A stretch of DNA of 64,000 nucleotides from the NCBI GenBank assembly GCA_041391785.1, contig JAWKNI010000011.1, positions 1,330 through 65,329 of the forward strand. The letters run 5' to 3'. Made by a program: the position numbers and the translations under genes. The notes below the pieces were generated by a model, which saw only the letters and a list, made by a program, of their open reading frames with translations, was not told the origin of the DNA and ran no database searches. Source of the stretch: Flavobacteriales bacterium (lineage in GTDB: Bacteria > Bacteroidota > Bacteroidia > Flavobacteriales_F > PHOS-HE28). This document shows, piece after piece, positions 29,906 to 63,769 of this stretch. Position 1 is the first letter of the stretch; each line of letters opens with the position of its first letter.

Positions 29906-30505
29906 CTAGTACCCGAAATCCCAGTTCTTCTTCCGCGCCACCTGCCCTTCGTCACTACCGCGCTCCTCGATCACCCCTGGAGGTCCTCCTGAGAGATAGC
30001 TCACAAGCTTCTTGCCCGTCTCCACTACTTCCAAGGTGCCTTGATCCGTGAGGGTGAACTCCACCACCAGTCCATTCACATCCTCCGCGAGGAACATCGC
30101 GATGGGGCCGAAGAAGGCGGCCAACTGTTCCGGCTCGCAAGTGGGCAGGAACACCCGCAGCACCCTTGGGTCGTAGTATCGGAAGTACATCTCGCGCCCG
30201 TCCTCGCCCTCCACGATCAGGAAACTGCGCAGGTGCTTGTAGAGTTTCACCGGATCCGCATCGCTTTGGAACACCACACCCCAGCTTTGGCCAGCACCGT
30301 TCTCCACAAGCCACTGGGCGAACGGGCTGTGCGGTGCAAGGCTGAAGAGCCATGGTGCCACAGCGGAAAGAAAGCGCTCACTATCCCCTTCGTACAAGCA
30401 GGTATGCTCCGGGTTCAACTCCCGAGCGCGGTGGATGTCGCCATGCATACGTGCGGCATCGAGCAGGAGGAAGGAGTTCGTAGCCAATGTCCGGTGAGGA
30501 TGCAT
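29906..30505 (-). CDS. DUF4123-family T6SS adaptor/chaperone (Tap/Tec type).
   Basis: 'LLLDAARMHGDIHRARELNPEHTCLYEG...APWLF', the paralog at 33104-33730 with a shared C-terminal 'WDFGY', and the position 16 bp downstream of the PAAR gene. Confidence 0.7.
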   Translation of the reverse strand: MHPHRTLATNSFLLLDAARMHGDIHRARELNPEHTCLYEGDSERFLSAVAPWLFSLAPHSPFAQWLVENGAGQSWGVVFQSDADPVKLYKHLRSFLIVEGEDGREMYFRYYDPRVLRVFLPTCEPEQLAAFFGPIAMFLAEDVNGLVVEFTLTDQGTLEVVETGKKLVSYLSGGPPGVIEERGSDEGQVARKKNWDFGY

Positions 30506-30521
30506 TAATGCCGTGGCAGGT

Positions 30522-31010
30522 TCAGGTCGGCAGTGAAGCCACCGCTACGAACGTCGCTCCATCGGTAGCGGCCTGTTGCATGGCAAGGGTCACTTGGGCG
30601 GTTTCCTTGGCCTTCGCCTCGACCGCCCCGTCGCCTCCAGCGGCTTGGTCCACTTGCTTCTGGAACTCTTGCATGATCGGCGCCATCACCACGGGCGTCA
30701 CCGGTCCCCCCGGGCTCATCTCACCGATCAACACGGTCGGGCACCCCACCACGATGGTTCCACCGTGCGCGCACATATCACCCATGCGTGCCGCCGGCTT
30801 GCCACCGATCAGCACACCCGTGGAACCCAGCACAATGGTATCTGGTGGTCCTACACAGGTACACATATCCCCCATCACGGCAGCGGGCATGCCGCCGATC
30901 AGCACGGTGGGCACGCCGGGGCCGGTCACCGGGCCGCCCACATGGGGCTTGGGACCATCGAACATGGGGCACACATGCATGTCGCCGAGACGGGCTGCGG
31001 GTTTGGACAT
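30522..31010 (-). CDS. PAAR-domain spike-tip protein with a roughly 50-aa Ala/Gln-rich C-terminal tail.
   Basis: 'MSKPAARLGDMHVCPM', repeated 'GxPxxxxGDMCxxGG' PAAR motifs. Confidence 0.85.
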   Translation of the reverse strand: MSKPAARLGDMHVCPMFDGPKPHVGGPVTGPGVPTVLIGGMPAAVMGDMCTCVGPPDTIVLGSTGVLIGGKPAARMGDMCAHGGTIVVGCPTVLIGEMSPGGPVTPVVMAPIMQEFQKQVDQAAGGDGAVEAKAKETAQVTLAMQQAATDGATFVAVASLPT

Positions 31011-31082
31011 GGTAGCTCGGTTTGGTATGGGCTAATGTAATATGTGCCAGGCATGCTCTATGCGAGCCTCATACTTGGTCCT

Positions 31083-31631
31083 TCAGGATCCCCCGTACTC
31101 CTTGGTCAGGAAGAAACCCTCCACGTCGGCCAGCTTCTTTTCTATGTGGAAGCAGTTGTTCTGGGGTTCGTCGTGATAGTCGCTCACGGGATACGGTCTG
31201 TAGCTCTTCAGGGTCTTCCTGAATTCATTCTTGTCGCTGATGGAGGCGAACGGGATGTCGAGGACGTTCACGAACGATGTGTCCACACAATGTTTGGTGA
31301 CATTACTGGGCCCGAGCTCTTTGATCTTCGCGTACATGGCATCGATCACCCCGGCCTTGTCCTTTCCCACTTTCACTGACTTCTCATACTCGGCGATGAC
31401 CATGTCACTGTGCTGACCATACACCTTGTACTGCTTCGCTGTTCCGGTCCTGTTACAATTGTTGTACATGACTCGCGCCTGATCGTAAGGGCTGCTGGCC
31501 ATTCTGGAAACTTCGATGCGCCCGTTGCCGGAAGCAGCGCCGAGGATCTTGAGCAGCTCAATGGCTTGGGCGGTCACGCCCTCATGGTTCACGCCATCAC
31601 GGGAAAGTATGGAGACCTCATCGGTGCGCAT
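31083..31631 (-). CDS. Hypothetical protein directly upstream of the PAAR gene. It is a candidate effector or immunity protein. It has lower GC, and its start could be as far upstream as 31736.
   Basis: ORF with a compositional shift; no motif recognised. Confidence 0.4.
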   Translation of the reverse strand: MRTDEVSILSRDGVNHEGVTAQAIELLKILGAASGNGRIEVSRMASSPYDQARVMYNNCNRTGTAKQYKVYGQHSDMVIAEYEKSVKVGKDKAGVIDAMYAKIKELGPSNVTKHCVDTSFVNVLDIPFASISDKNEFRKTLKSYRPYPVSDYHDEPQNNCFHIEKKLADVEGFFLTKEYGGS

Positions 31632-31741
31632 GAACGAAGTTGGTTTGATGAGTATGCCCGACCGAAAGATTAATGTAATCGGAACACGTATGCGCCGCTT
31701 TGCTATGTTCGTAGGCCATCCATCTCCCCTACGCATACGCC

Positions 31742-33094
31742 ATGGTGTTCCGTACTGTTTCTTCAGTCAGCTTACTGGCTATGGCGGTGATGGCCAAAGG
31801 TCAGTTCGGGATGGGGCTTGCCGGGGGATCATGGGAAGGGATCTGGGGGCTGCATCACCAACCAGCGAGCATCCTGTTGAACCAGGACAGGATGGAGGTG
31901 AATGTGTTCCGTGCGGGTATCGACGCATACGCGAATTTCCTTGAGATCGACCCCAACCGCTTCGGGATCTTGAATTTCAATGATGGGTTGGTCCTGGACA
32001 AGGAAGGACCGCAGGTGCACGGTACCGACCGCCTGGGTGAGAATAGCTTGTTCGATTTGCGCACATTGGGTCCGTCTCTGGCCAGGCGTGTGGGCAAGCA
32101 TGGGGCATGGGCGTTCACCACCGCTGGCCGGGTGATTTATACTGGGCTCGACCCGCGTGCCACCACTGGACGATTCGGCTTGGATACTCTGCTTCTTCGA
32201 GCGGGAGAAGAGCGGTTGATGGAAGCGGTGGACATGCGAGCAAACACGGCTACCTGGGCTGAAGCGGGTCTCACGTATGGCAGGACCTTCAATGATGCAG
32301 GTAAGGTGCGCATCCATGCAGCAGCTACGGGGAAGTTCATCGTGGGTGGGAGAGCCGGGTACCTTGTGGTATCCCCTCCTGTGGTCGAGGGTATGACCGA
32401 TTCCACCACGGCCATTGCGCAAGTGGACATTGACCATGCGTTGGCGTTACCCCACGACTGGAACACAGCGGGTCGCGGTTGGAACGCGGACCTGGGTGCG
32501 ATCATCGAAGTCATGAGGCGGGACTGGGCGCCGGATATGCGGCCATACCGGTTGCGTTTCGGTGTGGCATTCACCGACCTTGGATCGGTCAACTATAAGG
32601 AAGGGGCCGGCGTGTATCGGATCAGGAACGGCACCACCACCTCAGATCAACTGGCCGCATTGCAGGTGGATAATGTCGCTGGGTTGGATACTGCACTGAG
32701 CAGCTTGCTCCTCGGTGATCCGGTCCGGTCGCGCGTCGGAACCGCCTTCAAGTTGGGGTTGCCGGCCGCCTTGCACCTCAGCTTGGAGTTCTGCCCTGCT
32801 CAGCACTGGGCCGTTCGGGCCGAAGGCGTGTTGAATATGCGGCATCCGCCTGAGGCTCTGTCCACACGCGAACAGATCGCCATCACCCCGCGATTCGAGA
32901 CCCGTATGCTCATGGTCGCTGTTCCGTTCACCATGGACCGGTACGGTACGCGCGGGCTGGGGCTATGCCTTCGGTTGGGTGGCGCAATGCTCGGTAGCGA
33001 TCGCCTTGGTGGGCTCATCGGCATGGAGAACGGCGTAGGGGCCGACTTCTACTGCGGCATCAAGCTCCGGTTCAAAGAAAAGGAGCCCGAATAA
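31742..33094 (+). CDS. Secreted or outer-membrane-like protein of 450 aa with a signal peptide ('MVFRTVSSVSLLAMAVMAKGQ'). Its C-terminus ('YCGIKLRF') resembles that of the 37921-39318 protein.
   Basis: The ORF has non-spurious composition. The shared 'GIKL' C-terminal motif links it to the 37921 gene. Confidence 0.45.
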   Translation: MVFRTVSSVSLLAMAVMAKGQFGMGLAGGSWEGIWGLHHQPASILLNQDRMEVNVFRAGIDAYANFLEIDPNRFGILNFNDGLVLDKEGPQVHGTDRLGENSLFDLRTLGPSLARRVGKHGAWAFTTAGRVIYTGLDPRATTGRFGLDTLLLRAGEERLMEAVDMRANTATWAEAGLTYGRTFNDAGKVRIHAAATGKFIVGGRAGYLVVSPPVVEGMTDSTTAIAQVDIDHALALPHDWNTAGRGWNADLGAIIEVMRRDWAPDMRPYRLRFGVAFTDLGSVNYKEGAGVYRIRNGTTTSDQLAALQVDNVAGLDTALSSLLLGDPVRSRVGTAFKLGLPAALHLSLEFCPAQHWAVRAEGVLNMRHPPEALSTREQIAITPRFETRMLMVAVPFTMDRYGTRGLGLCLRLGGAMLGSDRLGGLIGMENGVGADFYCGIKLRFKEKEPE

Positions 33095-33103: not shown

Positions 33104-33730
33104 TCAGTAGCCGAAATCCCAGCCCTTGGAGGGTGGCCGTTGCTCCCGTATGGGCTCCGGTTCCTGCACGATCGCGGTTTGGGTGGCCTCCTCTGGGATT
33201 TGTTCAGCGCGCAGCTTGGGCACACCGGTGGTGCCGGTAGCGAGTCCTTCGAGGCTGCCCTCCAGTTCGGCATACAGCAACTCGTTGTCCGATAGGGCGT
33301 ACTCCACCAACAGCCCATTCTCGTCCTCGGCCACGAATGCCGTGATCGGGCCGAAGAACTCCCGGAGCTGGTCCTTGTCGCAGGTGGGCAGGAACACGCG
33401 CAGGACACGGGGATCATAGTAGCGGAAGTAAAGCTCCTTGCCCTCCTCGGTCTGGATGATAAGGAAACGCCGCAGGTGTTTATACAGTCGCACGGGTTCC
33501 ACTTCGCTCCTGAACAGGATACCCCAACTGTTCCCTTTGCCCTGCCGCACGGCCCACCGGGCGAAATCGCTCCCGGGCTCGAAGGCGAACAACCAGGGTG
33601 CCACAGCGGCCAGGAATTTCTCACTGTCGCCCTCGTACAAGCACGTGTGGTCCGGGTTCAGGTCGCGGGCCTCCTGGATGGCGCCGTTCATGCGCGCCGC
33701 ATCGAGCAGGATGTAGTTGGCCTTCTTCAT
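33104..33730 (-). CDS. Second DUF4123-family T6SS adaptor paralog.
   Basis: 'ILLDAARMNGAIQEARDLNPDHTCLYEGDSEKFLAAVAPWLF'. Confidence 0.7.
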   Translation of the reverse strand: MKKANYILLDAARMNGAIQEARDLNPDHTCLYEGDSEKFLAAVAPWLFAFEPGSDFARWAVRQGKGNSWGILFRSEVEPVRLYKHLRRFLIIQTEEGKELYFRYYDPRVLRVFLPTCDKDQLREFFGPITAFVAEDENGLLVEYALSDNELLYAELEGSLEGLATGTTGVPKLRAEQIPEEATQTAIVQEPEPIREQRPPSKGWDFGY

Positions 33731-34143
33731 TTGCTTGCATCCGATATGTCCCTGGGCGCAGCAACGCCCATGCCACCCAACACCCTTGCCCGGTTCGAGG
33801 AAAGATCATGGATCGCGATCGGGGCGGTGCTTCCCCGAAGTGCCAGAAGGTGGGCCGGCCAGTGTGGCAATTCGGCCTTGTTGATGGTCGTGAGCGGCGG
33901 TAGCCCTGTCGTAGGTTCAATGGCCTCCGCGCCGTCGCTTGCTGCCGTCCGGAGTTGTGAGATAAAGGTGTGGTGCGGGCCCTCAGACATCACATGCGCA
34001 TTCGTTGAACGAAAGAACAGGCATTTTCACAAAGGTGTCGCGCAAGGCCCAGAGGTGAACTCTCGGCTTGGGGTTTTATCCTCACATATGGATGTTAGTT
34101 CGTCCGAATCGCTATTTTCGACCACACCTACACGACCGCATGC

Positions 34144-34701
34144 ATGAAGCCGATCAATGCTGCCCAGCGCCGGGGCCAGTTCCTTCGTTTTGTCCTACTC
34201 TTTCTGCTGGCGATGACACCGGTGGTGGTGTTCATGTACCTCCTTGGACGGAACGACAGCAAGGCATATGAAGCGCTCAAGAACGAGCGGAACGAACTTC
34301 ATCAAAAGGCCAAAGTACATATGGGCCATGCTGAATTGGTCGGGAAGGTTGCTCGAGCGAGCCGCTTGTTCCAACAGAGCGTGTTTGAGAAGGAGCCGGA
34401 CTTTCTGGGGTTCACTACAAAAGTAGACGGCGTGTTTCTCAATGCGATCAGGGACTTGGAAGAGGCATCAGATTCTCTTAAGGAGAAGGGAGGAGGGGCG
34501 AGCAGTGATAAAGAGCTTGTTGCGATCGCACAGGATTATGCTGCGACATCCAAGAAACTTCTGGAAGTGTACGTGGGCGGATTCGCTGAGATCGGTAGAC
34601 TTCGAAAAGATTATGCACAATGTGATAAAAGCCTTACCGAAAAAACGGTCGAGGTGACAGCGCTTACCACTAGTTTAGAGAATTGTAAGCGTTCCAGGTA
34701 A
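34144..34701 (+). CDS. Single-pass membrane protein with an N-terminal TM and a coiled coil. Candidate Bacteroidota-specific T6SS membrane-complex subunit (TssO/TssP-like?).
   Basis: TM 'FLRFVLLFLLAMTPVVVFMYLL'. It is the first gene of a plus-strand cluster inside the T6SS locus. The assignment is inference only. Confidence 0.4.
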   Translation: MKPINAAQRRGQFLRFVLLFLLAMTPVVVFMYLLGRNDSKAYEALKNERNELHQKAKVHMGHAELVGKVARASRLFQQSVFEKEPDFLGFTTKVDGVFLNAIRDLEEASDSLKEKGGGASSDKELVAIAQDYAATSKKLLEVYVGGFAEIGRLRKDYAQCDKSLTEKTVEVTALTTSLENCKRSR

Positions 34702-34731: not shown

Positions 34732-35949
34732 ATGAAGGGACCTATCATTGCCTTTTTCGTGGTATTGGTCGTGCTTCTCACCGGTCTGCTCCTTTGGATG
34801 GACGACTCGATCATTGGAGCAATCCATGTGAAGGCTGGTAGTGATTCTGTTCCGAACAGTTCCTTGGTGATTGGGCAAGAGTATTATTTGCAGCCGGGGG
34901 ATGAGGTGGACGTGAGTGACTCCGAAGGTTTGCTTTGGCTTGTTCGGTCGGGCAACAATGATGAATTGGGCGATGTATTTGGACAAGAAATGTCCGTCCC
35001 GGTCTACAACTTTGGGGATACCGGCCGGTACTACATTGAATGCTCCCGCAACGCAAAGGTCATAGCGGTGGATTCCGTCTACGTGCGGCAGGGTGATCGG
35101 TTCGCGAGCCTGGGAGCCTGGTCTTCCTCGCCGGCCGATACGGCGGGTGCGTCCATTTATTTGACGAACAATTCGCAGAACGTCGCGGAGTGGAGATGGC
35201 GTGTGCATCGCCAAGGGACCCTTGTTGCCGAAGAAGGCGGTCAGAGCTGGAACTGGACCCCGATCGACACGGGGAGCCACATGGTGCGTTTGGACGTGCA
35301 GATGCGGTCGGGTGCCACCCATGCCGACTCCATGCTCGTGGCCATTGCGCCACCACCGCCCAAGTCGGCGGTGGCACCGAAGCCCAAGCCAACGCCAACA
35401 CCACCTGCACCCAGGCCCAAACCTGCACCCAAGCCCAAACCCACACCCAAGCCGAAGGTAGATCTCGCACCGCCACCCCCACTTGCTGGTGCATGCTTTG
35501 GAGCGAACCGGGCCCTATCCAGCACGAGCAAGGCCGATATGCCCGACCCGAAACGCGCCGATGTGCGCTGGGAGAAGGGAACAACGGAGTTCATCCTGGA
35601 TGTACATACCGATTGCAAGCTGAAGGACTTTCCACACTTCGCCAATTCCGAAGTTGCGGGCAACAAGGTGGCTGTCACCGTTGAGTGCATCAGCGAGGGC
35701 TGTACCGGAGAGAGCAGGTACACACGTTATTTCACCCCGGCGTTCGACAGCCAGAAGTGGGCCTCAAGGAGTGTGAACCTGCCCCTGCTCCTGGCAGGCA
35801 AGCGCTACCGTGTACGTGTGCAGCCCCAGGGGGACACCGACTATCTCGGCTACTTCGGCATCACATCGCAAGTGGTGAACACACCCTGCGCCACCATCAC
35901 CTTCCAACAGAACACCAGTTGCGTGTTCGATCTGGGTTTCCAGCACTAA
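34732..35949 (+). CDS. Single-pass membrane protein with a periplasmic domain and a Pro/Lys-rich linker ('PKPKPTPTPPAPRPKPAPKPKPTPKPK'). Candidate TssO/TssP-like subunit.
   Basis: TM 'IIAFFVVLVVLLTGLLLWM'; the linker is visible in the DNA as a 'cccaagcc' periodicity. Confidence 0.4.
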   Translation: MKGPIIAFFVVLVVLLTGLLLWMDDSIIGAIHVKAGSDSVPNSSLVIGQEYYLQPGDEVDVSDSEGLLWLVRSGNNDELGDVFGQEMSVPVYNFGDTGRYYIECSRNAKVIAVDSVYVRQGDRFASLGAWSSSPADTAGASIYLTNNSQNVAEWRWRVHRQGTLVAEEGGQSWNWTPIDTGSHMVRLDVQMRSGATHADSMLVAIAPPPPKSAVAPKPKPTPTPPAPRPKPAPKPKPTPKPKVDLAPPPPLAGACFGANRALSSTSKADMPDPKRADVRWEKGTTEFILDVHTDCKLKDFPHFANSEVAGNKVAVTVECISEGCTGESRYTRYFTPAFDSQKWASRSVNLPLLLAGKRYRVRVQPQGDTDYLGYFGITSQVVNTPCATITFQQNTSCVFDLGFQH

Positions 35950-35960: not shown

Positions 35961-37916
35961 ATGAACCGTCCATTGATCCTTTCCGCACTCGCGCCGACCG
36001 TTCAGTGTTACTCCGGCCTGCCCCGCATGGTGATGGGGTTGGTGCTGTGCATAACTGCGGCGGGTATACGGGGGCAGGAAATCACGATCACCGGCGTGGA
36101 GCCAGACCCGGTTTGCGCAGGGGGGGGCTTGGCGGTGGCGTTCGAGTTGAATGATCCGTTCAATGGGGGCAACGAGTTCACCGTTTGGCTCAGCGATGCA
36201 AGCGGTGACTTTGGCAGTGAACAGCAGATCGGGTCGCTTGCAGGTAATGTGTCCGAGACGATCGATGCGGTTGTTCCTCTCGGTGTAATGGCCGGATCAG
36301 GATTCCGGGTCAGGGTGAAAAGCACGGATCCGGAGGTCATCTCGGATGGGTCGGGTCCCTTTGAGGTCATTGCCTTATTAGTTTTCCCCGGTAGCTATGG
36401 TCCGTTCTGCAGCAATGGACCTGCGATCACCCTGGGTGGCACACCGTCGGGTGGTGTGTGGACGGGTATAGGTGTGAGCGGAAATGGTCCGTACACCTTC
36501 AACCCTTCGGTGGGCACCCAGACGCTCACCTATACCGCGACCAGCGGTAGCTGCAGCGACAGTGCGCAGACAACCATAACAGTCAACACCGCCCCTGCGC
36601 AACCGGATCCGGGGACATACGGCCCGCTTTGCAGCAATGATGACCCCATCGATCTTGCAGGTGATCCAGAAGGCGGAACCTGGACCGGTATAGGAGTCAC
36701 CGGCAACCAGTTCAACCCGAGTGTGGGGACACAAGCGCTCACCTATTCGATCACGAACGCGAGCAACTGTACCAGTAGCGCATCAACCACGGTGACGGTG
36801 ACCAATGCATCAGATGCGTCCATCACCTACAACGGATCTCCTTTCTGTGCATCGATCGGTTCAGCCGCGGTCACACAAAGTGGTTCGGATGGAGGGTCGT
36901 ATACCGCTTCGCCGTTTGGTCTTATTATTAATGTCAACACCGGTGAATTGGACCCCGAAGCCAGTACTCCAGGTACATACACGGTCACGTATGAGGTGCC
37001 TGCGAACGGAGTGTGTCCGATTTTCACTACCTCCACTACCGTCACCATCGTGTCCGTTCCGGAGCTTCCAATAGTTGCCGATCTGGGTGCCGATACGTTG
37101 TGCCACGGCCAGGTCACCTCTCTTTTTCTGGGGAACGACTATCCAGCGGGAACATCCTATTCCTGGTCCACCAGTGGTCCTGCCGAAATACTCAGCGGTG
37201 CCGACGAACCTATTTGTACGCTGGAATGGACGCATGCACCACCGTCCACCGGTCCAACTGGAAGTGGGGTTGCAGGGAGCTATACGGTCGCGGTGAATGT
37301 CGGTGGGTGTGCGAATCAGGTGTCAGGAACGATCACTGTGCTGGATTACTATGCCTCCTGTCCCAAAGGCATCGTTTTCTTCGAGCCGTACGGACTGGCC
37401 GTGATCGATCCGGTGGCGAACCATTTTCAGTGGGGCGCCATGGATGCCACAGGCGCGACTTTCACACCGATCGTGGGCGAGGTGGACCAAATCATGTTCC
37501 GGCCCGCGCTCGCATCCTTGGCAGGCGGTCTCCCGGTGGCTCCTCCTTATGTGGTCCGCAGTTCCATCTACGCCGATAAGTGTTTCTCGTACACGGCCCG
37601 GTGGGTGGATCAACCGGGGCTTGATCGGGAATGTTTGGTACCCACCTCAGGCATGACCACGGAGCCGGGCCATACGATCTACCCCAACCCGGGGGACGGC
37701 AAGTCGCTCACGGTGGAGGCTACGGGACCTCCGCTGGAGGAACCCATATGGTTCGAATTGTACGATATGCAAGGCCAGCAGGTGCATGCCGAACAAGTGT
37801 TGGTGCGGCCCGTCGCCCGGCTCGCTGCGGATCTTTCCGGTCTTGGACGGGGCATGTACGTGGTGCGCCTGCATAGCAGTGGCATGGAAGAGAACTTGAA
37901 ACTGATACTCGACTGA
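35961..37916 (+). CDS. T9SS-sorted surface protein with a signal peptide, at least 5 Ig-like repeats ('GP(L/F)CSN..PI.L.G.P.GG.WTG.GV.GN.FNPSVGTQ.LTY') and a type-A C-terminal domain ('TIYPNPGDGKSLTVEA...GMYVVRLHSSGMEENLKLILD').
   Basis: Repeats and C-terminal domain read directly. The start at ATG 35961 ('MNRPLILSALAP') was chosen over the upstream ORF extension. Confidence 0.7.
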   Translation: MNRPLILSALAPTVQCYSGLPRMVMGLVLCITAAGIRGQEITITGVEPDPVCAGGGLAVAFELNDPFNGGNEFTVWLSDASGDFGSEQQIGSLAGNVSETIDAVVPLGVMAGSGFRVRVKSTDPEVISDGSGPFEVIALLVFPGSYGPFCSNGPAITLGGTPSGGVWTGIGVSGNGPYTFNPSVGTQTLTYTATSGSCSDSAQTTITVNTAPAQPDPGTYGPLCSNDDPIDLAGDPEGGTWTGIGVTGNQFNPSVGTQALTYSITNASNCTSSASTTVTVTNASDASITYNGSPFCASIGSAAVTQSGSDGGSYTASPFGLIINVNTGELDPEASTPGTYTVTYEVPANGVCPIFTTSTTVTIVSVPELPIVADLGADTLCHGQVTSLFLGNDYPAGTSYSWSTSGPAEILSGADEPICTLEWTHAPPSTGPTGSGVAGSYTVAVNVGGCANQVSGTITVLDYYASCPKGIVFFEPYGLAVIDPVANHFQWGAMDATGATFTPIVGEVDQIMFRPALASLAGGLPVAPPYVVRSSIYADKCFSYTARWVDQPGLDRECLVPTSGMTTEPGHTIYPNPGDGKSLTVEATGPPLEEPIWFELYDMQGQQVHAEQVLVRPVARLAADLSGLGRGMYVVRLHSSGMEENLKLILD

Positions 37917-39318: not shown

Positions 39319-39323
39319 ACCTC

Positions 39324-41852: not shown

Positions 41853-41863
41853 CCATCGTGTTC

Positions 41864-50367: not shown

Positions 50368-50757
50368 TTACATCGGCCACTCGTTCTGCAGCTCTTCGCT
50401 GCCGAGGGTCAGCTTCTGGGCCGAGAGGGTGAACGAGGTGGTCATGGGGTTGCCGCCCACGGAGTCGAAGTTCTCGCTGAGCTGTACCACGTAGGCAGTG
50501 GTGAACTTCAACTCCTTCATCTTGGCGTCCTCGTCACGCTTCTTGAATACGATGCTGCCGTCCACGCTCTTGAACTGGGCGATCATCAGATCCCACAGGG
50601 AGGTGTCGTCGGTGCTTTCGATCTCGAAGCTGATGGTACCACCTTTCACTTCGCTGCTGGGGCGGCCGGTGGGGTCGATGTCACGGTTCAAGGCGTAGCT
50701 GCAGTGCAGCAGGCGGTAGGTCTTGCCGTTCATCGTGAGGTCTGCGCGGAATGCCAT
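50368..50757 (-). CDS. hcp: Hcp (TssD) T6SS inner-tube protein, Bacteroidota type, 129 aa.
   Basis: 'MAFRADLTMNGKTYRLLHCSYALNRDIDPTGRPSSEVKGGTISFEIEST' from ATG 50757. A 430-bp promoter region lies upstream. Confidence 0.85.
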   Translation of the reverse strand: MAFRADLTMNGKTYRLLHCSYALNRDIDPTGRPSSEVKGGTISFEIESTDDTSLWDLMIAQFKSVDGSIVFKKRDEDAKMKELKFTTAYVVQLSENFDSVGGNPMTTSFTLSAQKLTLGSEELQNEWPM

Positions 50758-56049: not shown

Positions 56050-56496
56050 TCAGTCGTGGGAGAAGGGAGCCACCATCATGGTGTCCATGAAATGAAAGGT
56101 TTCATTCGTTCTGGCCAGCCGGGCATGGAGCGTGATCCTGAGCCTTCGCTTGAGGCGACCGGCCACATGGTTCCCCTGCTTCTGCTTGAATTCGGCCTGG
56201 TCCACTTCAGCTTTCACATGCACATCGGTGAGCCGGCCCTCATAGCGCTCGATCATTTCCTTCATGTGCTGCGCCATGCGGTCCATCCAGACGGCCGATG
56301 CCTGCACGGTGCTGAACTGATGATCCCACAATTCGCACCCGTACTCCGGGTCAGGTGGGTACTCGTCCTTCGCGGTGGTCAGTAGTAGATAGATGTGGTT
56401 GGCGATGCTCGCATCCTCGGGCACCACCGGGAAGGCTCCCTCTTCAAGGAACCCCAGCACGTCCATGGGCATGCCCGATGCGGTTCCCGGCTCCAT
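56050..56496 (-). CDS. tssE: T6SS baseplate wedge protein TssE (gp25-like).
   Basis: About 148 aa; 'IANHIYLLLTTAKDEYPPDPEYGCELWD' resembles gp25/GPW. Confidence 0.7.
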   Translation of the reverse strand: MEPGTASGMPMDVLGFLEEGAFPVVPEDASIANHIYLLLTTAKDEYPPDPEYGCELWDHQFSTVQASAVWMDRMAQHMKEMIERYEGRLTDVHVKAEVDQAEFKQKQGNHVAGRLKRRLRITLHARLARTNETFHFMDTMMVAPFSHD

Positions 56497-56500: not shown

Positions 56501-58282
56501 TCAATTGATCTTCACAAGGGATCCCTTTACCTGTGTCACCGCACTTGCGCTCAACTCGGAGGTGGCACCCTTCAAGGCCAGTTGACCGGTCGCTACCAAC
56601 TCAACGTTCCCGGCCGCCGTGACCTCGGCATTGGCCATGGCGCTCATTTTCACATTGCTTCGCGATTCCACGCTGAAATCACCACCAGATTCGACCAGGA
56701 GATCCTGACCAGCTGTCATTTTGATGTCTCCCCCGGCCTCAAGGGTCAGGCCATTGCCCGCCTTGAGGATGAGTTCCCCATCCGTGCGAATGGTCAAGGT
56801 ACCCGATGAATCACAATTCAATTCCAATGTGTTCTTTTCGTTCTGGATGGTGATGATGCCATTGTCATTGAAGATGATCTCATTCCCGGAACGCGTTCGA
56901 ATGGCCTTCAGTTCATTCTTGTCACCGGCCATTCCTGGTTGTCCATGCTGCCCATTGTACAGAGACCCCACTATGTACGGGGAGCGATCCCTTCCCATTT
57001 CAAAGGCTACCATGACCTCGTCGCCGAGTTCTGGCACGAAGTAGAATCCCCTGTCATCGCCGGCATGTGGCTGGAGCATGCGAAGCCACGGGGAGTGGGC
57101 CGATCCCCATTCGAAGGCTACGCGAACGCGGCCCAATTTTTCCGGATCCTCATTCAACACCACAGTTGCCCGGGAACTCTCGATCCGCGGTGACGCGATC
57201 CGGATCGATGCCGGGATACTTGCTCCCGACGGGACGGCTTGGAAATAGTTCTGGTAGTTATCGCGGCCACGGCAGGTATGGGTCACCTGGGTCACCACAT
57301 ATTCTCCGCTGTGTGCGAAGCCATCGAGCTTGATCGTGGCACCCACCTGGATCTCCGCCAGATCACTTGATCCCACGATCTTGTGGGTGTCGTTGGCCTG
57401 GCCCTGTCGCATCCGGTCCATCGTCGCTCGGATCGTATCCCGCTTGGGCTGGCCCTCCTCGCCATCGGCGAAAGAGGGGAACGGATGGTTCACGTTCTTG
57501 TCGCTCGCTGCGGGATAGAGTTCATCGGACTTCTTGAGGATCTTCGAGGCGATGCTGTCCGAATGGCTGGGTTCGGCTCCCTGAAGCTCCACTTTTTCGT
57601 TCGCCAGATAATCCCATGCTGATAGGGTAGGGGGCGGCTGTGTGGTAGAGAAGGTGAAGTCAAGTGATTGGACACGCTGGAGGCCCAGGTTCAATGCGGG
57701 GGCATCGGAAATGCCCAAACGGATCTTCTGTCCATCATAGTAGAACCATTCACCATGCTCATGCATGATCCGGCACATGAAGTCGAAGTCCGTTTCGTTG
57801 TATTGCACTACGAATGGGAGCTTCTCCTTGAAGGTGAGATGGTCCTCCGCCTTGAGCTTTTCGCTCAGGTTGCTGCCGTTCGCCTGGTCGTACAACTCTT
57901 TCAGGCCCACCTCGGCGTACGTATCTGAATTCGGCGCCGAATCCATGAGGATCGTGGGGCTCTTACCGGTGATCGTCACCAGCATGTGGTCCTTCTGTTG
58001 TCCGCTTACCGATACGTCCATCACGATCCCCTTGAAAGAAGATCGGTCCGTACCCTTGCTCTCCTTTTTGGACAGGCTCGTTTCCCAATCGATCAGGATG
58101 GTCTCCCCGATAAGGTCGGGAAGTTTATCGAACAACTGATCGCTCTTTGGCTCAATGGAGGCGCTGGGCACCACCACCTCGAAAGAGTGGTGTCCGAAGA
58201 TGGTCTGAACAACGTTAACGCTGCGCACACTGAGCAGCTCCTTGTCGTTCACGGAGACCTTCAGGAAGATCTTCTCTGCCAT
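56501..58282 (-). CDS. vgrG: VgrG (TssI) spike protein of 593 aa with no C-terminal toxin extension.
   Basis: gp27/gp5-like architecture; 'VTQVTHTCRGRDNYQNYFQAVP', beta-helix repeats near the C-terminus. Confidence 0.8.
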   Translation of the reverse strand: MAEKIFLKVSVNDKELLSVRSVNVVQTIFGHHSFEVVVPSASIEPKSDQLFDKLPDLIGETILIDWETSLSKKESKGTDRSSFKGIVMDVSVSGQQKDHMLVTITGKSPTILMDSAPNSDTYAEVGLKELYDQANGSNLSEKLKAEDHLTFKEKLPFVVQYNETDFDFMCRIMHEHGEWFYYDGQKIRLGISDAPALNLGLQRVQSLDFTFSTTQPPPTLSAWDYLANEKVELQGAEPSHSDSIASKILKKSDELYPAASDKNVNHPFPSFADGEEGQPKRDTIRATMDRMRQGQANDTHKIVGSSDLAEIQVGATIKLDGFAHSGEYVVTQVTHTCRGRDNYQNYFQAVPSGASIPASIRIASPRIESSRATVVLNEDPEKLGRVRVAFEWGSAHSPWLRMLQPHAGDDRGFYFVPELGDEVMVAFEMGRDRSPYIVGSLYNGQHGQPGMAGDKNELKAIRTRSGNEIIFNDNGIITIQNEKNTLELNCDSSGTLTIRTDGELILKAGNGLTLEAGGDIKMTAGQDLLVESGGDFSVESRSNVKMSAMANAEVTAAGNVELVATGQLALKGATSELSASAVTQVKGSLVKIN

Positions 58283-58318: not shown

Positions 58319-59677
58319 TCACTCCTGTGCATATTCCGACTGCCATTCGGCGCTGTCGGGGTCGTCGCCCTTCTGACCGTCCAGTTTGAACACGTAGTTC
58401 TTGGCCGGGAAGTAGGGGGTCATGTGGATGTCCAGGAAGATCCGGTCCTTTTGGTTGGGGTCTTGTTCGAAGCGCAAGATCTTGAACTTCTCGATCAGCT
58501 TGCCCGGTCCGCAAACGCCGTCCAGGAACTTCACGATCTGCGAACGGATCTCGCGCTGGGTCTTCGAGTTGAAGTTCTCGAAGGCGCGGCGGTTCAGGAA
58601 ATCCATGAGCACCTTGGAGATGTAGTCGAACACGCGGACCACCGAGTAGGTCTGCAGGCCGATATTGTCCCCATTGAAGAGGGTCTTTGCCGAGAAGGCC
58701 ATCACCTTGCCGTACTCGTTCACCATGGGCACCAAGCCCATCTTCTCCATGGCGGCCACTTCGCTTTTGCGCAGATCGAAGGCCACGGAATCCACCTCGT
58801 TCATGGAACCATGCTTCTTCCCGGCGGTGACCTGCGACATCAGCGTGTTGTAGATCTTGCCGGCCAGGGCCCCGGAAGGCGGAACGAAAAGATGTTCTTC
58901 CTCGCCGACCTCTGCGGCCTTGTCTCGACCCACCAGCCAGTTGGCGGCCATCACCACGTTGCTCTTGTACACGTCGCCACCGGACAGGTTGGCATTGGCG
59001 AACATGGCCATTACATCGTCGGGTGTGTCCAGGTGTTGGAAGTCCGTCACCAAGGTCGCCTTGTTCTTGTGGCAGAACTTCGCCCATTTCTCCACCACCT
59101 TGTTGGAGCCGAGGTAGCCGGGAATGCAAACGATGCCGTAGTTGTCGCGCAGGTCGAGCCTGTCATAGCAATCCTTCAATTCCTGCTCCACGGAATCAAT
59201 GAACGTGGTGTTGTCCAGATCGGATAGTTGCTCCATGGACGCGTTCATGATGTTCACGTTCTTGAGCTTGTCGCTTTCGGTGTTCTTGTAGAAAAGGGCC
59301 ACCGAGCGATAGCTCCGCTCCATATCCGCTGTGGTGTTCAATGCGGTGAGCAGGTTCTGGCGGTAGAGCTTATCAGTGGCTTCGCTTTTCTCTTCACAAC
59401 CGCGGATCACCTCTCCAACATCGTCCGATGAGGTGAGCGTATCGATCCACAGCTTCAATTTGCCCGCGAGTTGTTTGCGTTCATCGGTGTACTGTGCCTC
59501 GTTCAGGAAGATGTTGCGGCGGGCCTTGCTCTCGGGGTTCAGGTTCGCCACACCGTCCACGACGGCGCTAAGCAGATCGAAGCCGCCGAATTTGGCGAGG
59601 GCATCCAGGTGGTCCTTCAGGCCGCCTTCCCGGAGTTTCTCCGCCGACTTGGTCTCCTTTTGGTTCTCGGTGCTCAT
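58319..59677 (-). CDS. tssC: T6SS sheath large subunit TssC (VipB).
   Basis: 452 aa with a TssC-like core, adjacent to tssB. Confidence 0.8.
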   Translation of the reverse strand: MSTENQKETKSAEKLREGGLKDHLDALAKFGGFDLLSAVVDGVANLNPESKARRNIFLNEAQYTDERKQLAGKLKLWIDTLTSSDDVGEVIRGCEEKSEATDKLYRQNLLTALNTTADMERSYRSVALFYKNTESDKLKNVNIMNASMEQLSDLDNTTFIDSVEQELKDCYDRLDLRDNYGIVCIPGYLGSNKVVEKWAKFCHKNKATLVTDFQHLDTPDDVMAMFANANLSGGDVYKSNVVMAANWLVGRDKAAEVGEEEHLFVPPSGALAGKIYNTLMSQVTAGKKHGSMNEVDSVAFDLRKSEVAAMEKMGLVPMVNEYGKVMAFSAKTLFNGDNIGLQTYSVVRVFDYISKVLMDFLNRRAFENFNSKTQREIRSQIVKFLDGVCGPGKLIEKFKILRFEQDPNQKDRIFLDIHMTPYFPAKNYVFKLDGQKGDDPDSAEWQSEYAQE

Positions 59678-59714: not shown

Positions 59715-60164
59715 TTATTTCTGGTCCAGTTCGGCGGCCAGTTCTTTCAAGGCTTCGATCACGGCGGCCTTGGCCGAAGGGTCCTGCATGGCGGCCACGA
59801 AGCGTTTGTTGCTCCGGAGCTGTTTCACCACCTTCATCAGTTCGGTCTGTTGCAGGTTGAGGTCCTGGAGGAAGCCGCTTTGTTTGGTGAGTCCTTTCGG
59901 ACCGAAATCACCCAGGTTGCCGAAGCTCAGTTCCTCCTTCACCTCGGCACCATCGGCACCGGTGAAGGCCGCTTCGACCTTCGGCTTGAAGTGGGCGAAG
60001 ACCGCTTCCACGTTCGTGAGACCTTCCACCACCTGTGGCCGCACGGGATCATCGCCGGTGAGCTTCTGGATCATCAGGGTCTTGTTCTGCGGAAGGTCGG
60101 CGAACGCCTCGCTTGCATCAACCGGGCGCTCGGTGCCGCCGATGCCATATTCGAACTCTGCCAT
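59715..60164 (-). CDS. tssB: T6SS sheath small subunit TssB (VipA).
   Basis: 149 aa, immediately upstream of tssC. Confidence 0.75.
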   Translation of the reverse strand: MAEFEYGIGGTERPVDASEAFADLPQNKTLMIQKLTGDDPVRPQVVEGLTNVEAVFAHFKPKVEAAFTGADGAEVKEELSFGNLGDFGPKGLTKQSGFLQDLNLQQTELMKVVKQLRSNKRFVAAMQDPSAKAAVIEALKELAAELDQK

Positions 60165-60181
60165 GGTAAGGGAATGGTTGT

Positions 60182-62653
60182 TTAAACGATGTTGAACTGG
60201 AAGTCGCCGTCCTTCAGGGTGGTATGGATGGTCTGTCCTTTGGTCACCTGCTGGCCGATGATCATGCGGGAAATGGGTCTGCGCAACCGATTGCGGATCA
60301 CATTGCGTAAGGGTCGCGCACCATATTGGGGGGTGAAGCCCTCCATGGCCAGTGCGCGTCGGGTATCCGGATCGAGCGCGAGATGGATCCCTTGCAGTTC
60401 GAGTGCTTTTTCAAGCTGCTTCAACTGGATGTTGAAGATAAGCTCCACGGTCTCTTCACTGATCGGGCGGAATGGCAATATCTCCGTCAATCGGGCCAGG
60501 AATTCGGGCCTGAAGTGGCGCGACATGATCTCCATCAGGTCGGTCGATCCAGGGATCCGCCCCGAGGCGAACTCCTCGATGATATGCTGGCTGCCGATGT
60601 TGGAGGTGAACAGGATCACCGCGTTCGAGAAATCGCCCTCCCGTCCCAGCCGGTCGTGGAGCTTGCCTTCGTCCAGGATCTGCAGGAACAGATCGAACAC
60701 CGAAGGGTGGGCCTTCTCGATCTCGTCGAAGAGCACGATCGCATAAGGCTGCTGCCGGATCTTGTTCACGAGCAGGCCACCTTCCTTATAGCCCACGTAT
60801 CCGGGAGGCGCACCGTACAAGAGAGCCGCGCTGTGCTCCTCCTTGAACTCGCTCATGTCGAAGCGGATCAGGCTGTTCTCATCGGCGAACAACAGTTCGG
60901 CCAGGGCTTTGGCCAGTTCCGTCTTACCCGTACCGGTTGGGCCCAGGAAGAAGAAGGAGCCGATGGGTAGACCGGCCTTGTTCAACCCGGAACGGCTTTC
61001 CAGTATGGAATCCGCAAGGATCTTGATCGCGTGGTCCTGGCCGATCACCCGCTTCTTCAAGATCCCTTCGATACCCATCAGGCGTTCCTGTTCCTGGGCC
61101 TGCACCTTGCCGATGGGGATCCCTGTCTTGTGGGACACGATAGCGGCGATATCCTCCTTATCCACACCGGTCTTCTTGGTCCCGGCAAGGTTTTCCAGGC
61201 GCTCCAGCATACCGGATAGATGCTCCCTGACGGCTTGAGCGGCCTCAAGCTTGGCCACATCGACCTCATCGTTGAGCATGCCCAGGAAAACCGGGCTCAA
61301 CGTGCCGGTCATCTCGGAGTGCAGGTGGCGAAGCTCCTCCAGTTCAGCGGTGTCGCCCGTCTCTCCAAGGCCTTGCAGCCTGTCCTTCAATTGACCCACC
61401 TGGTCGGCCGATGTCTCGTTCATCATCCGGATGGAGGCGAGGGTACGGTCGATCAGGTCGATGGCGGCATCGGGCAGGCGTCGTTCCTTGAGGTACCTCC
61501 GCGACAGACGGATCGACTCGTCAAGGCCGTTCTCGTGCACCTCGATACCGTGGTGCGACACGTACAAGGGGACCACGGTCTTGAGCATCTGCTTGCACAC
61601 CGCGTCGGTGGGTTCTTCCACCCGCACCACTTCGAAGCGGCGCATGAAGGCCTCTTCACCCTCCAGGAATTCCCGGTATTCGTCGTTCGTGGTGGCTCCG
61701 ATCACGGTCAGTTCGCCCCGGGCCAGTTCGGGTTTCAGCAGATTGGCACAGCCGGCCAGGCCCCTGTTCTCGTCGAAAAGGGCGTGGATCTCGTCAATGA
61801 ACAGGATCGCCTTTTCATGCCCCTTCACCCCGCCAATGACGTTCTTGATCCGGTCCTCCACTTCCCCTTTGTAGGAAGCTCCGGCGACCAAAGCGCCCAG
61901 GTCCAGTTCCAGCAGCCGGGCTCCTTTCAGGTGCGGGGGCACCTTGCCCGCCTGAAGGTCCAAGGCGAATCCTTCCACCAGTGCGGTCTTGCCTACGCCG
62001 GGATCACCCAATATGATCACGTTGGGCTTCGATCGCCGACCAAGGATCTCGGTCATCATACGCACTTCCTTGTCGCGCCCGATGATGGGATCGATCTTGC
62101 CTGCAGCCGCCAGTGCCACCTTGTCGATGCAATAGGCACCGAGCGCCTTGGAAGAGCCAGGAGATGATCCGTTGTCCGTCACTATTCCGTTCGGCAGGCC
62201 TGTCCCATGGCCGTCCGCACCGAGCTTGGGCGCGTCCACATGGTCCATGATCTCCTGCCTGTTCAACGGGAAGGATTTCAGCTGCTCGTAGCTGAACCCG
62301 ACCCCAGGTGTACAAAGGGCGGTAAGCAGGCACAAGGCATCCACCTCGCTCCGGCCGAATTTGATCTTCACGTAATCGGCTTCCCGGATAACCGAATCCA
62401 CCTGCGTGTCGGTGCCCGGTGTGCTGACAGGCCCGGACGCCTTGGGGTAGGCCTCGATGCGCATGTCGGCCCATTCGCGCATGTAGCCCACATCCTTCTG
62501 CATACTGTCCAGAAAGGGCGAAAGTCCATGTTCCTTGTGCAACACGGCCTTAAGCACATGACAAGCACCAATGGAGCCATGGCCATGATCCTTGGCGATC
62601 AATCCAGCCATCGACAGGGCTTCGCCCACAGGGGCGTTGAGGGTAGTGCTCAT
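60182..62653 (-). CDS. clpV: ClpV (TssH) AAA+ ATPase.
   Basis: Two AAA modules (Walker A 'GDPGVGKT' and 'GPTGTGKT') and a Clp N-domain; 823 aa. Confidence 0.9.
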
Positions 62654-62678
62654 TGGGCTGTGCCTGCTATGGACAAGG

Positions 62679-63023
62679 TTACGATATTTTTCCCATCAAT
62701 TGCGCGGAAAGCATGTCCACCGGGGGGAGTACGATGGCCATGCTTTTCTCCGACACCTCCATGGGGTCCCCTTTTCCATAAAAATGAACGAGATCCTCAT
62801 GCAGGCGTTGCAGGTCGCGCAACAACTGCTGGGTCTTGGGGTCCCTGCGCTGTTCACCTGGAAGCCTGAACTTGAAATGTCTGATACTCTCGTCCAGGCG
62901 ACAGAGATGACCGTTCGCGACGGCAATGGCCACAATGGGCAGTTCGCGGGCCGTGGCGTATCTCATTTCCGAGCGGACCTGGCCGATCGACCGTGCTATA
63001 TCGTTGAACGTACTTGACATCAC
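62679..63023 (-). CDS. Hypothetical 114-aa protein between the LytTR regulator and clpV.
   Basis: ORF whose start overlaps the regulator gene's stop by 4 nt. Confidence 0.35.
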   Translation of the reverse strand: MMSSTFNDIARSIGQVRSEMRYATARELPIVAIAVANGHLCRLDESIRHFKFRLPGEQRRDPKTQQLLRDLQRLHEDLVHFYGKGDPMEVSEKSMAIVLPPVDMLSAQLMGKIS

Positions 63024-63769
63024 ACGCCCATCAACAGGGAAAATTCCTTCTTTCTGCTGCGGCCGATCGGGATCAGCTTGTCATCGGACATGATCACGTG
63101 ACCGCCCTCGGTGCGCACCAGGGATCGGATGTGCTCCAGGTTCAGTAGATAGCTCTTGTGAATGCGGAAGAAGCGGTTGTTGTTGAGGCGGGTCTCGAAG
63201 TATTTGAGGTGCTTGCTGATCAGGTGCGTGGATCCCTTGGTCTTGATCCGGGTATACTCGTTGTCGGCCTCGCAATAGATGATCTCGTTCGGTTCAACGA
63301 AGACATGCCCGTTCGTTGTGGGAAGTGCCATCTTCTCGAATACGAAATCTGTCGTCTGGGGGGGCGAGACAGACCAGGGTGCCAGAGGGCGTCCCTGCCC
63401 TTCCACCAGCCGGTTCAATGTGCGGCGGAGTTCAATAGCGTTGATCGGCTTCAGCAGGCAGTCGAACCGGCTTGATTTGATGGGCTGATGCACGTAGGCA
63501 TTTTCCTTGGCCAGGAAGATCATCTTGAAGGAGCGGACCGCAGTGATGCCCAACATTTCCCGACCCGTGAAGAAGGGCATGCCGATATCGATGAAGACCA
63601 CCTGCGGTACCTGCATTTGGATGCGTCTAATACCTTCCTTGAAACAGGTATGTTGTCCCAGCAAAGTGAACTCCTTCGAACGCCTCCGCAACTCCATGGC
63701 CAAGGCATGGTTCGACCGGTCGTCATCATCGATGACCAAGCACGAAATGGGTTTAGTACCGGGCGCCAT
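63020..63769 (-). CDS. LytTR-family response regulator (REC plus LytTR DNA-binding domain).
   Basis: 'ISCLVIDDD', 'QVVFIDIGMP', and a LytTR domain ('IYCEADNEYTRIKTKGSTHLISKHLKYFETRL'). Start at ATG 63769. Confidence 0.8.
   Translation of the reverse strand: MAPGTKPISCLVIDDDDRSNHALAMELRRRSKEFTLLGQHTCFKEGIRRIQMQVPQVVFIDIGMPFFTGREMLGITAVRSFKMIFLAKENAYVHQPIKSSRFDCLLKPINAIELRRTLNRLVEGQGRPLAPWSVSPPQTTDFVFEKMALPTTNGHVFVEPNEIIYCEADNEYTRIKTKGSTHLISKHLKYFETRLNNNRFFRIHKSYLLNLEHIRSLVRTEGGHVIMSDDKLIPIGRSRKKEFSLLMGV

Follow-up and report, generated by a model that had tools for sequence, protein, structure and literature searches.

A type VI secretion locus of subtype iii that probably carries a co-inherited envelope module in an uncultured high-GC Flavobacteriales lineage

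Introduction

How is the membrane complex of a type VI secretion system (T6SS) of subtype iii built into the bacterial envelope? In T6SS-iii loci tssN lies between tssG and tssK, and a separate group holds tssO, tssP and tssR, whose products are established parts of the membrane complex and have been reported in T6SS contexts only (PMC10781749). TssP consists of a transmembrane helix followed by PKD-like domains, and TssR of Bacteroides fragilis is a lipoprotein (PMC10781749). tssQ could not be identified in 23% of T6SS-iii systems, and in Flavobacteriales tssO, tssQ and tssR often cannot be identified (Bongiovanni et al., PMC10781749). The same study leaves open how the complex is anchored in the outer membrane, how it crosses the cell wall and where it came from; its authors sought an ancestral system and found none (PMC10781749).

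These questions are raised again by a locus in a 64,000-nucleotide stretch of DNA (the window; contig JAWKNI010000011.1 of assembly GCA_041391785.1) from an uncultured Flavobacteriales bacterium, in which positions 29906-63769 had been predicted to hold a complete T6SS-iii. Our analysis indicates that the locus is, with high probability, a T6SS-iii with a co-inherited extra envelope module. A T6SS-iii is a known system and an expected find in an uncultured lineage; what appears to be new is the conserved extra envelope module, in which TssR genes stand beside genes for an ATP-binding cassette (ABC) transporter pair.

Results

The minus-strand operon encodes the T6SS-iii core

We assigned families with Pfam and NCBIfam hidden Markov models (HMMs) run on the open reading frames (ORFs) of the window, with the T6SS family scans covering ORFs between 17.5 and 64 kb. 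Gene order was compared by tblastn and phmmer searches together with gene tables. We found clpV, tssB, tssC, vgrG, tssE, tssF, tssG, tssN, tssK and hcp contiguous on the minus strand at 50368-62653.

60182..62653, minus: ClpV/TssH-like AAA+ ATPase, directly upstream of tssB-tssC (AAA_2 189 bits, plus ClpB_D2-small)
59715..60164, minus: TssB, small sheath subunit, divergent, adjoining tssC (VipA, PF05591, 21.6 bits, E 2e-4)
58319..59677, minus: TssC, large sheath subunit of the Bacteroidota type (PF17541 746.6 bits, full length)
56501..58282, minus: VgrG/TssI spike (Phage_GPD, Phage_base_V, weak DUF2345; TIGR03361 114 bits, below cut-off)
56050..56496, minus: TssE, gp25-like baseplate wedge (GPW_gp25 56.6 bits, above gathering score; TIGR03357 E 4.7e-9)
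54254..56044, minus: TssF (PF05947 24.9 bits, E 9e-6, against a gathering score of 25)
53307..54257, minus: TssG (PF06996 29.8 bits, above gathering score)
52367..53284, minus: TssN, polytopic inner-membrane connector of the T6SS-iii membrane complex (PF17555 90 bits)
51189..52370, minus: TssK, 393 amino acids (aa), from an ATG overlapping the tssN stop (TIGR03353 E 1.9e-5; faint PF05936)
50368..50757, minus: Hcp/TssD, 129 aa, Bacteroidota type (PF17642 158.5 bits)

The core proteins therefore match T6SS families, as the prediction had asked to be checked by HMM, and not phage-tail or extracellular contractile injection system (eCIS) families. The T6SS-iii type is supported by PF17541, PF17642, PF17555 and the TssR domains described below, and by the gene order tssG-tssN-tssK (PMC10781749). 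The predicted ten-gene run was recovered in full, and direct reading of the sequence located both of the ATGA couplings that had been proposed, tssF/tssG at 54254-54257 and tssN/tssK at 52367-52370. The gene described as TssN-like and polytopic encodes 4-5 hydrophobic helices and then a C-terminal soluble domain, and lies between tssG and tssK. The families TssJ, TssL and TssM, which form the T6SS-i membrane complex, matched none of the ORFs scanned, in agreement with the prediction.

For several core proteins synteny supplements the HMM score. TssB falls below the gathering score of PF05591, which is 24; TIGR03358 matched it at E 1e-3, and a search of PDB sequences returned only weak, non-significant matches to VipA/TssB chains. 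TssF has orthologues 58-68% identical at the equivalent position in related loci. The search with TssK against PDB sequences found nothing. The ATPase scored 622 bits with TIGR03345 (TssH) and 703 bits with ClpB, both under the curated cut-offs; HMMs alone cannot separate ClpV from ClpB, and the position beside tssB-tssC supports ClpV. Public contigs with an identical TssC carry the same gene calls (TssK 393 aa, Hcp 129 aa).

A plus-strand operon encodes the envelope proteins

The interval 29906-63769 does hold a T6SS locus, as predicted, but the description of it had overlooked a 13-kb plus-strand operon at 34144-47273. Whether the locus is complete turns on the membrane-complex genes tssO (a candidate only), tssP and tssR, which are encoded in the overlooked operon, and TssQ was not found. 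Since this operon falls within the interval, the hcp-linked cargo at 47281-50273, which had been placed at the end of the locus opposite the PAAR and DUF4123 genes, sits in the middle, between two convergent operons. The PAAR/DUF4123 genes themselves (one PAAR, two DUF4123) are at the left end, where they had been described. The earlier interpretation is incomplete rather than wrong: it had missed a tandem TssR pair, an ABC pair with a lipoprotein, an immunoglobulin (Ig)-repeat protein with a type IX secretion system (T9SS) signal, and a barrel candidate.

The operon converges on the core operon and points away from one of the DUF4123 genes (copy b). Its genes are separated by 0-30 bases or overlap by 4 bases, and every ORF is intact.

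34144..34701, plus: TssO-like (or TssQ-like) protein, 185 aa, N-terminal transmembrane helix and helical periplasmic part
34732..35949, plus: TssP-like protein, 405 aa, N-terminal transmembrane helix, two PKD-like domains, Pro-rich linker, Cys-containing C-terminal domain
35961..37916, plus: Ig-repeat protein, 651 aa, signal peptide and T9SS type A C-terminal sorting domain
37921..39318, plus: secreted protein, 465 aa, invariant CxxC in the N-domain, C-terminal half beta-rich, conserved in related loci
39315..41852, plus: TssR paralogue 1, 845 aa (TssR_VWA 30 bits, above gathering score)
41849..44437, plus: TssR paralogue 2, 862 aa (TssR N-barrel 25.5 bits, TssR_VWA 22.6 bits)
44443..45189, plus: ABC ATPase of the LolD/FtsE/MacB type (ABC_tran 78.9 bits)
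45196..46773, plus: divergent FtsX/LolE/MacB-type (type VII ABC) permease, 525 aa
46770..47273, plus: lipoprotein, 167 aa, signal peptide and lipobox Cys, start overlapping the permease stop by 4 bases

The only Pfam match of the 185-aa protein was to TssO, below threshold (E 0.058). Its size and topology fit TssO, and its homologue in a related locus (L008, 41% identical) has a weak precomputed match to PF17561. The 405-aa protein is TssP-like by architecture, which is the one published for TssP. Hhalign matched its residues 58-209, at a probability of 88.7%, with the tandem PKD domains in a set of proteins from Cytophagales that themselves score 84 bits on Pfam PKD_4; its profile also matched PKD domains in the PDB, and residues 125-220 matched repeated domains of giant proteins.

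The Ig-repeat protein scored 27.7 bits with Por_Secre_tail and 34 bits with TIGR04183 (cut-off 23). Proteins with a T9SS C-terminal sorting domain occupy the equivalent operon position in L006, L007, L023, L016 and L019. The 465-aa protein that follows is a candidate outer-membrane beta-barrel. Hhalign placed it with 93% probability in a family of ~467-aa proteins, of which the L016 member passes OMP_b-brl_2 at 33.5 bits. The AlphaFold2 model of the window protein was unusable (mean predicted confidence, pLDDT, 39.5), searches for its homologues returned only 3-4 sequences, and no relatives turned up in a metagenome scan that started from the ~467-aa family of Cytophagales.

The two TssR genes are in tandem and their products are 42% identical. 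Paralogue 1 is homologous over its full length to the TssR of L019, which passes all four TssR Pfam domains and thereby anchors the family assignment of both divergent window copies; paralogue 2 has an orthologue in L024 at 54% identity. Both window proteins carry a signal peptide of the signal peptidase I (SPI) type ending in A/G-Q, with no Cys and no lipobox. In this clade no TssR has a lipobox, whereas the lipoprotein encoded after the permease always has one. The signal peptides of all TssR homologues run A/G then Q. This fits the 'Q-rule' for SPI substrates in Bacteroidetes (PMC5837995) and supports the phylum assignment.

The ABC pair and the lipoprotein

The ATPase scored 137 bits with LolD and 132 bits with FtsE, below the equivalog cut-offs, and it retains intact Walker A, Walker B and signature motifs. 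The permease is predicted to have one helix, a periplasmic domain of ~310 aa and three further helices. Its AlphaFold2 model (pLDDT 79) gave 38 top Foldseek matches in the PDB that were all type VII ABC permeases, among them LolE (E 2.5e-8), LolC, MacB, YbbP, HrtB, BceB and FtsX. At the sequence level PF02687 matched 5 of 12 family members weakly, and the family profile matched nothing among PDB sequences; the fold comparison alone worked. On this modelled fold, 45196-46773 and 44443-45189 form a type VII ABC pair.

The lipobox Cys of the 167-aa lipoprotein is present in the window, L006, L008, L010 and L013. Homologues of the lipoprotein follow the permease in L006, L008, L010, L012, L023, L024, L026 and L033.

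The order TssR, ATPase, permease is conserved

The permease served as bait to retrieve related loci (numbered with an L). Its family is small, with 15 clusters among 5.8 billion proteins; its loci number 13 in 185,579 species-representative genomes, every one a metagenome-assembled genome (MAG), together with 21 metagenome loci. These counts are lower bounds because the scans rely on word or motif matches. The relatives come from MAGs or metagenome contigs only, and the window permease and 465-aa protein have identical entries in an NCBI MAG ('Flavobacteriales bacterium'), annotated as hypothetical. Thus the suggestion that the lineage is unstudied holds. The window has a GC content of ~59%, and NCBI files its clade (57-66% GC) under Flavobacteriales.

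In all ~25 non-redundant loci whose upstream sequence reaches far enough, the permease gene comes directly after a TssR-like gene and the ATPase gene. This order is kept at permease identities of 22-27% and at GC contents from 30 to 66%, in loci that include MAGs of Cyclobacteriaceae, Flammeovirgaceae and Bacteroidales and a group at 30-34% GC. The full order of TssO-like, TssP-like, T9SS Ig protein, barrel candidate, TssR, ATPase, permease and lipoprotein was found in L006-L011, L014, L023 and L032. T6SS core genes are convergent to the module in L006-L009, L025 and L032, and Hcp or TssK is encoded nearby in L010, L012, L026 and L033. In a Bacteroidales MAG (L018), TssE, TssF and DUF4123 genes lie downstream of the module, and L017 has a PAAR gene. 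As an observation on its source, L010 (CAZYPC010000041.1) is labelled 'uncultured Chryseobacterium sp.' yet its locus has 60% GC; this is far above the GC content of Chryseobacterium genomes and casts doubt on the label.

Several loci carry a second gene derived from TssR. The full TssR1-TssR2 pair is present in the window and L024, and L023 has the TssR1 orthologue with a 63-aa remnant of the TssR2 C-terminus (9052-9240). L023 (GCA_964267735.1) is the closest relative, and several of its genes were called in fragments, so assembly errors are possible there. MAGs of Cytophagales and Bacteroidales carry an extra gene with the TssR N-terminal barrel domain only. Upstream of TssR, the Cytophagales loci encode an MBG/Ig-repeat protein with a T9SS sorting domain, a barrel-family protein and a PKD protein, the parts list of the window in another order.

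In one of these relatives, L016 (Cyclobacteriaceae, OZ271832.1), the region at 11500-20097 downstream of the TssR/ABC module encodes an iSTAND protein and an AAA ATPase, next a 1778-aa protein in which WG repeats are fused to the whole set of TssR domains (N-barrel, VWA and C), and then a DUF4062 protein. The fusion places a TssR-type architecture also in an apparent conflict-system context. Two low-GC contigs (32-33% GC) differ again in their neighbours: in L039 (7651-12993) the module is followed by a CHU_C protein (type B T9SS signal), two collagen-repeat proteins and PorP/SprF, and in L040 (10635-13012) a Ser/Thr protein kinase and another TssR-N-like gene lie near it.

Core and module have diverged to different extents between the window and L032 (Ga0209573_1001706). 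The core proteins are 98% (Hcp), 76% (TssE), 72% (TssK), 70% (VgrG) and 68% (TssF) identical, and the envelope proteins 25-38% identical (TssR 31%, permease 38%, 465-aa protein 31%, TssP-like 26%). Judged by these identities, this mosaic may mean either that the envelope module evolves much faster or that the two halves recombine independently.

Cargo genes and neighbours of the locus

Hcp-linked cargo spans 47281-50273, where the plus- and minus-strand operons converge.

49848..50273, minus: M23/LytM peptidase without signal peptide (Peptidase_M23 30.9 bits; HxxxD and HxH motifs in the translation)
49053..49715, minus: 220-aa protein in a cargo or immunity slot, zero family matches
47941..48690, minus: 249-aa protein, Gly-rich hydrophobic C-terminus, no family match
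47281..47862, minus: 193-aa protein, last gene of the minus-strand unit, no family match, 74% identical homologue in L032

From its family and motifs the M23 protein is a candidate Hcp-linked peptidoglycan-cleaving effector. The slot after hcp varies by locus, with M23 in the window, YkuD in L006 and CHAP in L023. Homologues of the 249-aa protein, 33-57% identical, occupy the equivalent position near hcp in L006, L008 and L023.

At the left end, in the window as in its relatives, the PAAR and DUF4123 units point away from the envelope operon.

33104..33730, minus: DUF4123 adaptor/chaperone, copy b, divergent from the envelope operon (PF13503 111.6 bits)
31742..33094, plus: DUF5723 outer-membrane-type protein, T6SS membership uncertain (PF18990 62 bits)
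31083..31736, minus: protein upstream of PAAR, likely start near 31631, zero family matches
30522..31010, minus: PAAR spike-tip protein with a variable C-terminal extension of ~60 aa (PAAR_motif 90 bits)
29906..30505, minus: DUF4123 adaptor/chaperone, copy a (PF13503 114.9 bits)
29429..29863, minus: 144-aa ORF downstream of DUF4123 copy a, a weak call as an ORF only, no family match

Copy b of DUF4123 has orthologues 83-90% identical at the equivalent position in L006 and L008, and the next gene in L006 encodes a PAAR-phospholipase. The DUF5723 gene lies on the opposite strand between copy b and the PAAR unit, where relatives have a PAAR-toxin gene, and may be an insertion or replacement within the cargo island. 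Relatives of the PAAR protein align over residues 1-100 only in L010 and L011 but over 1-157 in L017. The 144-aa ORF is a possible small effector or immunity gene. According to one paper, DUF4123 chaperones are an enterobacterial arrangement, contrasted with adaptor genes in Bacteroidota loci, and because of that contrast the DUF4123 genes in the window, L006, L008 and L018 are a minor point of interest. Two ORFs near the divergent junction, of 88 aa (33727-33993) and 223 aa (33476-34147), were rejected as spurious: their composition is implausible, they are antisense to or overlap real genes, and no family matched them.

The following gene flanks clpV.

63020..63910, minus: LytTR-type response regulator (Pfam LytTR 78.5 bits, Response_reg 33.4 bits)

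It is a possible local regulator and only a candidate member of the system. To the left of 29.4 kb the genes are of housekeeping type (ABC exporter, sigma factor, TGT, LptF/G); therefore the T6SS locus ends near 29.4 kb.

Further left, in the 13 kb at 4300-17500, we found no ORF above ~340 aa despite a genome of ~60% GC, and the best coding frame changes every few hundred bases. Fragmentary domains there include, on the plus strand, Reg_prop at 4623-5225 and GerE at 8122-8727, and on the minus strand a T9SS sorting domain in the middle of ORF 9476-10300. Frameshifts seem to have disrupted large genes in this region, which would be pseudogenes or the product of poor assembly; the T6SS region is intact. 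The ORF at 3-4340 (minus) runs past the left edge of the window and has 12 LVIVD repeats (beta-propeller) and, towards the C-terminus, a Peptidase_S74 (endosialidase chaperone) domain. Neither the Rfam scan nor the tRNA scan found a match in the window. The Bacteroidetes -7 motif TAnnTTTG occurs 2 times in the window against ~9 expected from shuffles, which is rarer than chance, and this high-GC lineage may use other promoter signals.

Discussion

For the module we established the gene identities, the permease fold, the intact ATPase motifs, the operon coupling and the conserved gene order. The locus looks functional and comprises two convergent operons and a divergent cargo island. From what is established for these families, and from PMC10781749, the minus-strand operon would supply the TssB/TssC sheath, the Hcp tube and, with PAAR, the VgrG spike; ClpV would recycle the contracted sheath, TssE, TssF, TssG and TssK would form the baseplate, and TssN would dock the baseplate to the inner membrane. 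The plus-strand operon would supply the envelope part: the TssO- and TssP-like proteins as periplasmic proteins anchored in the inner membrane, two secreted, non-lipidated TssRs, and four further conserved components, namely a T9SS-exported surface Ig protein, the barrel candidate, the LolCDE/MacB-like ABC pair and the small lipoprotein.

How might these additional components act? In LolCDE, MacB and FtsEX, cytoplasmic ATP hydrolysis drives a conformational change in the periplasm (mechanotransmission), and the ABC pair may work in the same way. The periplasmic change would act on TssR, the lipoprotein or both, so that the membrane complex is assembled, anchored or gated. The barrel and the lipoprotein would provide the outer-membrane anchorage that is given by lipidated TssR in Bacteroides. 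We put this specific mechanism forward tentatively and give it not quite an even chance.

Several observations weigh against a T6SS-iii with a co-inherited envelope module. Because the permease was the bait, our data show that the permease family always occurs with TssR, not that a T6SS-iii usually has the permease. In the Cytophagales and low-GC loci we found no T6SS core gene within the available flanks, so that the module may act independently of the T6SS. In L017, L018, the Cytophagales loci and the low-GC loci we did not detect the lipoprotein beside the permease. For TssQ the window offers no candidate apart from the single 185-aa helix-anchored protein, and the barrel assignment is indirect because the 465-aa protein's own model failed. 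TssB, TssF, TssK, the TssO-like protein and ClpV were assigned by sub-threshold HMM scores plus synteny, and the whole locus is known from genes alone, its host being uncultured.

Could the module belong to the envelope and not to secretion? An independent envelope or surface structure of T9SS cargo, barrel, TssR and ABC pair, which merely neighbours the T6SS, would account for the modules in Cytophagales and low-GC loci that have no detectable core genes nearby and stand instead beside GroEL, collagen-repeat proteins, a CHU_C protein and PorP/SprF. The contrast in L032 between core (68-98% identical to the window) and module (25-38%) likewise suggests separate evolutionary histories. However, TssR, TssP and TssO are T6SS-iii parts known only from T6SS contexts (PMC10781749), in the window's clade they are packed into one operon with the extra genes, and three or more divergent lineages have the module convergent with or adjacent to core genes (the clade of the window, L018 with TssE/TssF, and L017 with PAAR). 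We therefore think an independent structure rather improbable. Nor is a decaying, non-functional relic without TssQ at all probable: TssQ was indeed not detected and a 13-kb stretch elsewhere in the window looks frameshifted, but all ~25 T6SS-related ORFs are intact and tightly coupled, their orthologues are conserved in many loci, and tssQ is missing from view in nearly a quarter (23%) of T6SS-iii systems anyway (PMC10781749). Phage tails also have VgrG, gp25 and sheath-like proteins, which could recall an eCIS or a prophage tail. That reading is effectively refuted by the matches to the T6SS-iii-specific PF17541, PF17642, PF17555 and TssR domains; no tail fibre, tail terminator, tape-measure, terminase or capsid family matched the ORFs scanned, and nothing points to such a system because the locus has a ClpV-like ATPase as well as TssN and TssR.

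The two other alternatives concern what the ABC pair does. It could serve, together with the lipoprotein, as an input like TagT/TagS/TagQ of Pseudomonas, sensing envelope damage or attack and switching the T6SS post-translationally without being structural. The two sets have the same parts, namely an ATPase of the COG1136 type, a permease resembling LolE and a lipoprotein, all in a T6SS locus (PMC13584744); the permease fold matches LolE, and a Ser/Thr kinase lies near the module in the distant L040. Yet among the window ORFs scanned we detected neither a homologue of PpkA, PppA, Fha or TagR nor any kinase, phosphatase or FHA family, the invariant partner of the pair is TssR, a structural membrane-complex protein, and TagQRST is known from T6SS-i only, so that we regard a sensory input as unlikely while giving it some weight. 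The pair could also be a dedicated LolCDE-like sorter whose sole job is to move the co-encoded lipoprotein from the inner to the outer membrane. Lipoprotein-bound LolE and LolC are its closest structural matches, and the lipoprotein gene, with its conserved lipobox, overlaps the permease stop by 4 bases. This too has a small probability in our judgement: in L017, L018, the Cytophagales and the low-GC loci the lipoprotein was not detected beside the permease, whereas TssR was there always, and the periplasmic domain is ~100 aa larger than that of LolC/LolE.

With a T6SS-iii carrying a co-inherited envelope module as the preferred reading, ~25 relatives and the window show a recurring link of TssR to a LolCDE/MacB-like ABC system, which by lineage extends to the barrel candidate, the T9SS-sorted surface protein and the lipoprotein. 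The module offers testable candidates for missing membrane-complex functions, and may explain why membrane complexes appear 'incomplete' in profile-based surveys of some environmental Bacteroidota. It also suggests a possible functional link between the T6SS-iii and the T9SS, two secretion systems specific to Bacteroidota. A more far-reaching idea, which we consider unlikely but worth stating, is that T9SS surface protein, barrel, TssR-type VWA protein and ABC pair are an old, self-standing trans-envelope module of Bacteroidota and the ancestral source that was co-opted for the T6SS-iii membrane complex. If so, the full module would still be wired into the T6SS in the window's clade, and the T6SS of the window would need both the type IX secretion system and a mechanotransducer in the periplasm that is driven by ATP.

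The nearest known system as a whole is the T6SS-iii of B. fragilis GA3 with its TssNQOPR complex (Bongiovanni et al. 2024, PMC10781749; Coyne et al. 2016, PMC4714493). The two have in common the core TssB, C, D, E, F, G, I and K with a ClpV/TssH-like ATPase, as well as the placement of tssN, a separate group with tssP and tssR and, in the window, a tssO candidate, a TssP with helix and PKD-like domains, a VWA domain in TssR, and the absence of TssJ, TssL, TssM and TssA. Neither of these papers mentions an ABC transporter or permease (PMC10781749; PMC4714493). Unlike GA3, the window has no TssQ that we could find, its TssR is duplicated with an SPI-type rather than a lipoprotein signal, it has DUF4123 chaperones, and its operon adds the T9SS-sorted Ig protein, the barrel candidate, the type VII ABC pair and the lipoprotein. 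A T6SS-iii with TssN, TssO, TssP and antibacterial cargo was reportedly described by Russell et al. in 2014 from Flavobacterium johnsoniae, an environmental member of the Flavobacteriales with low GC; we know of no ABC/permease module in that system.

The ABC pair shares its permease fold and topology and its LolD/FtsE-type ATPase with LolCDE, MacB and FtsEX. The window permease differs from theirs in its almost undetectable sequence similarity, its larger periplasmic domain and its place in a secretion-system operon. In the literature that we searched, with incomplete coverage, no paper linked FtsX or an ABC transporter to the T6SS-iii, and a 2026 review of T6SS accessory factors lists ABC components only for Pseudomonas TagTS (PMC13584744). 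The TagQRST system of the Pseudomonas aeruginosa H1-T6SS is of the T6SS-i type and an input to the PpkA/Fha/PppA phosphorylation pathway (Casabona et al. 2013, as summarised in PMC13584744). According to that summary its T6SS locus, like that of the window, has genes for an ATPase resembling LolD (TagT), for a LolE-like permease with four helices (TagS) and for a lipoprotein (TagQ). TagTS/TagQ is the closest analogue of the ABC module, by a likeness at the level of the general ABC family, with TssR as the constant partner that sets the window and its relatives apart.

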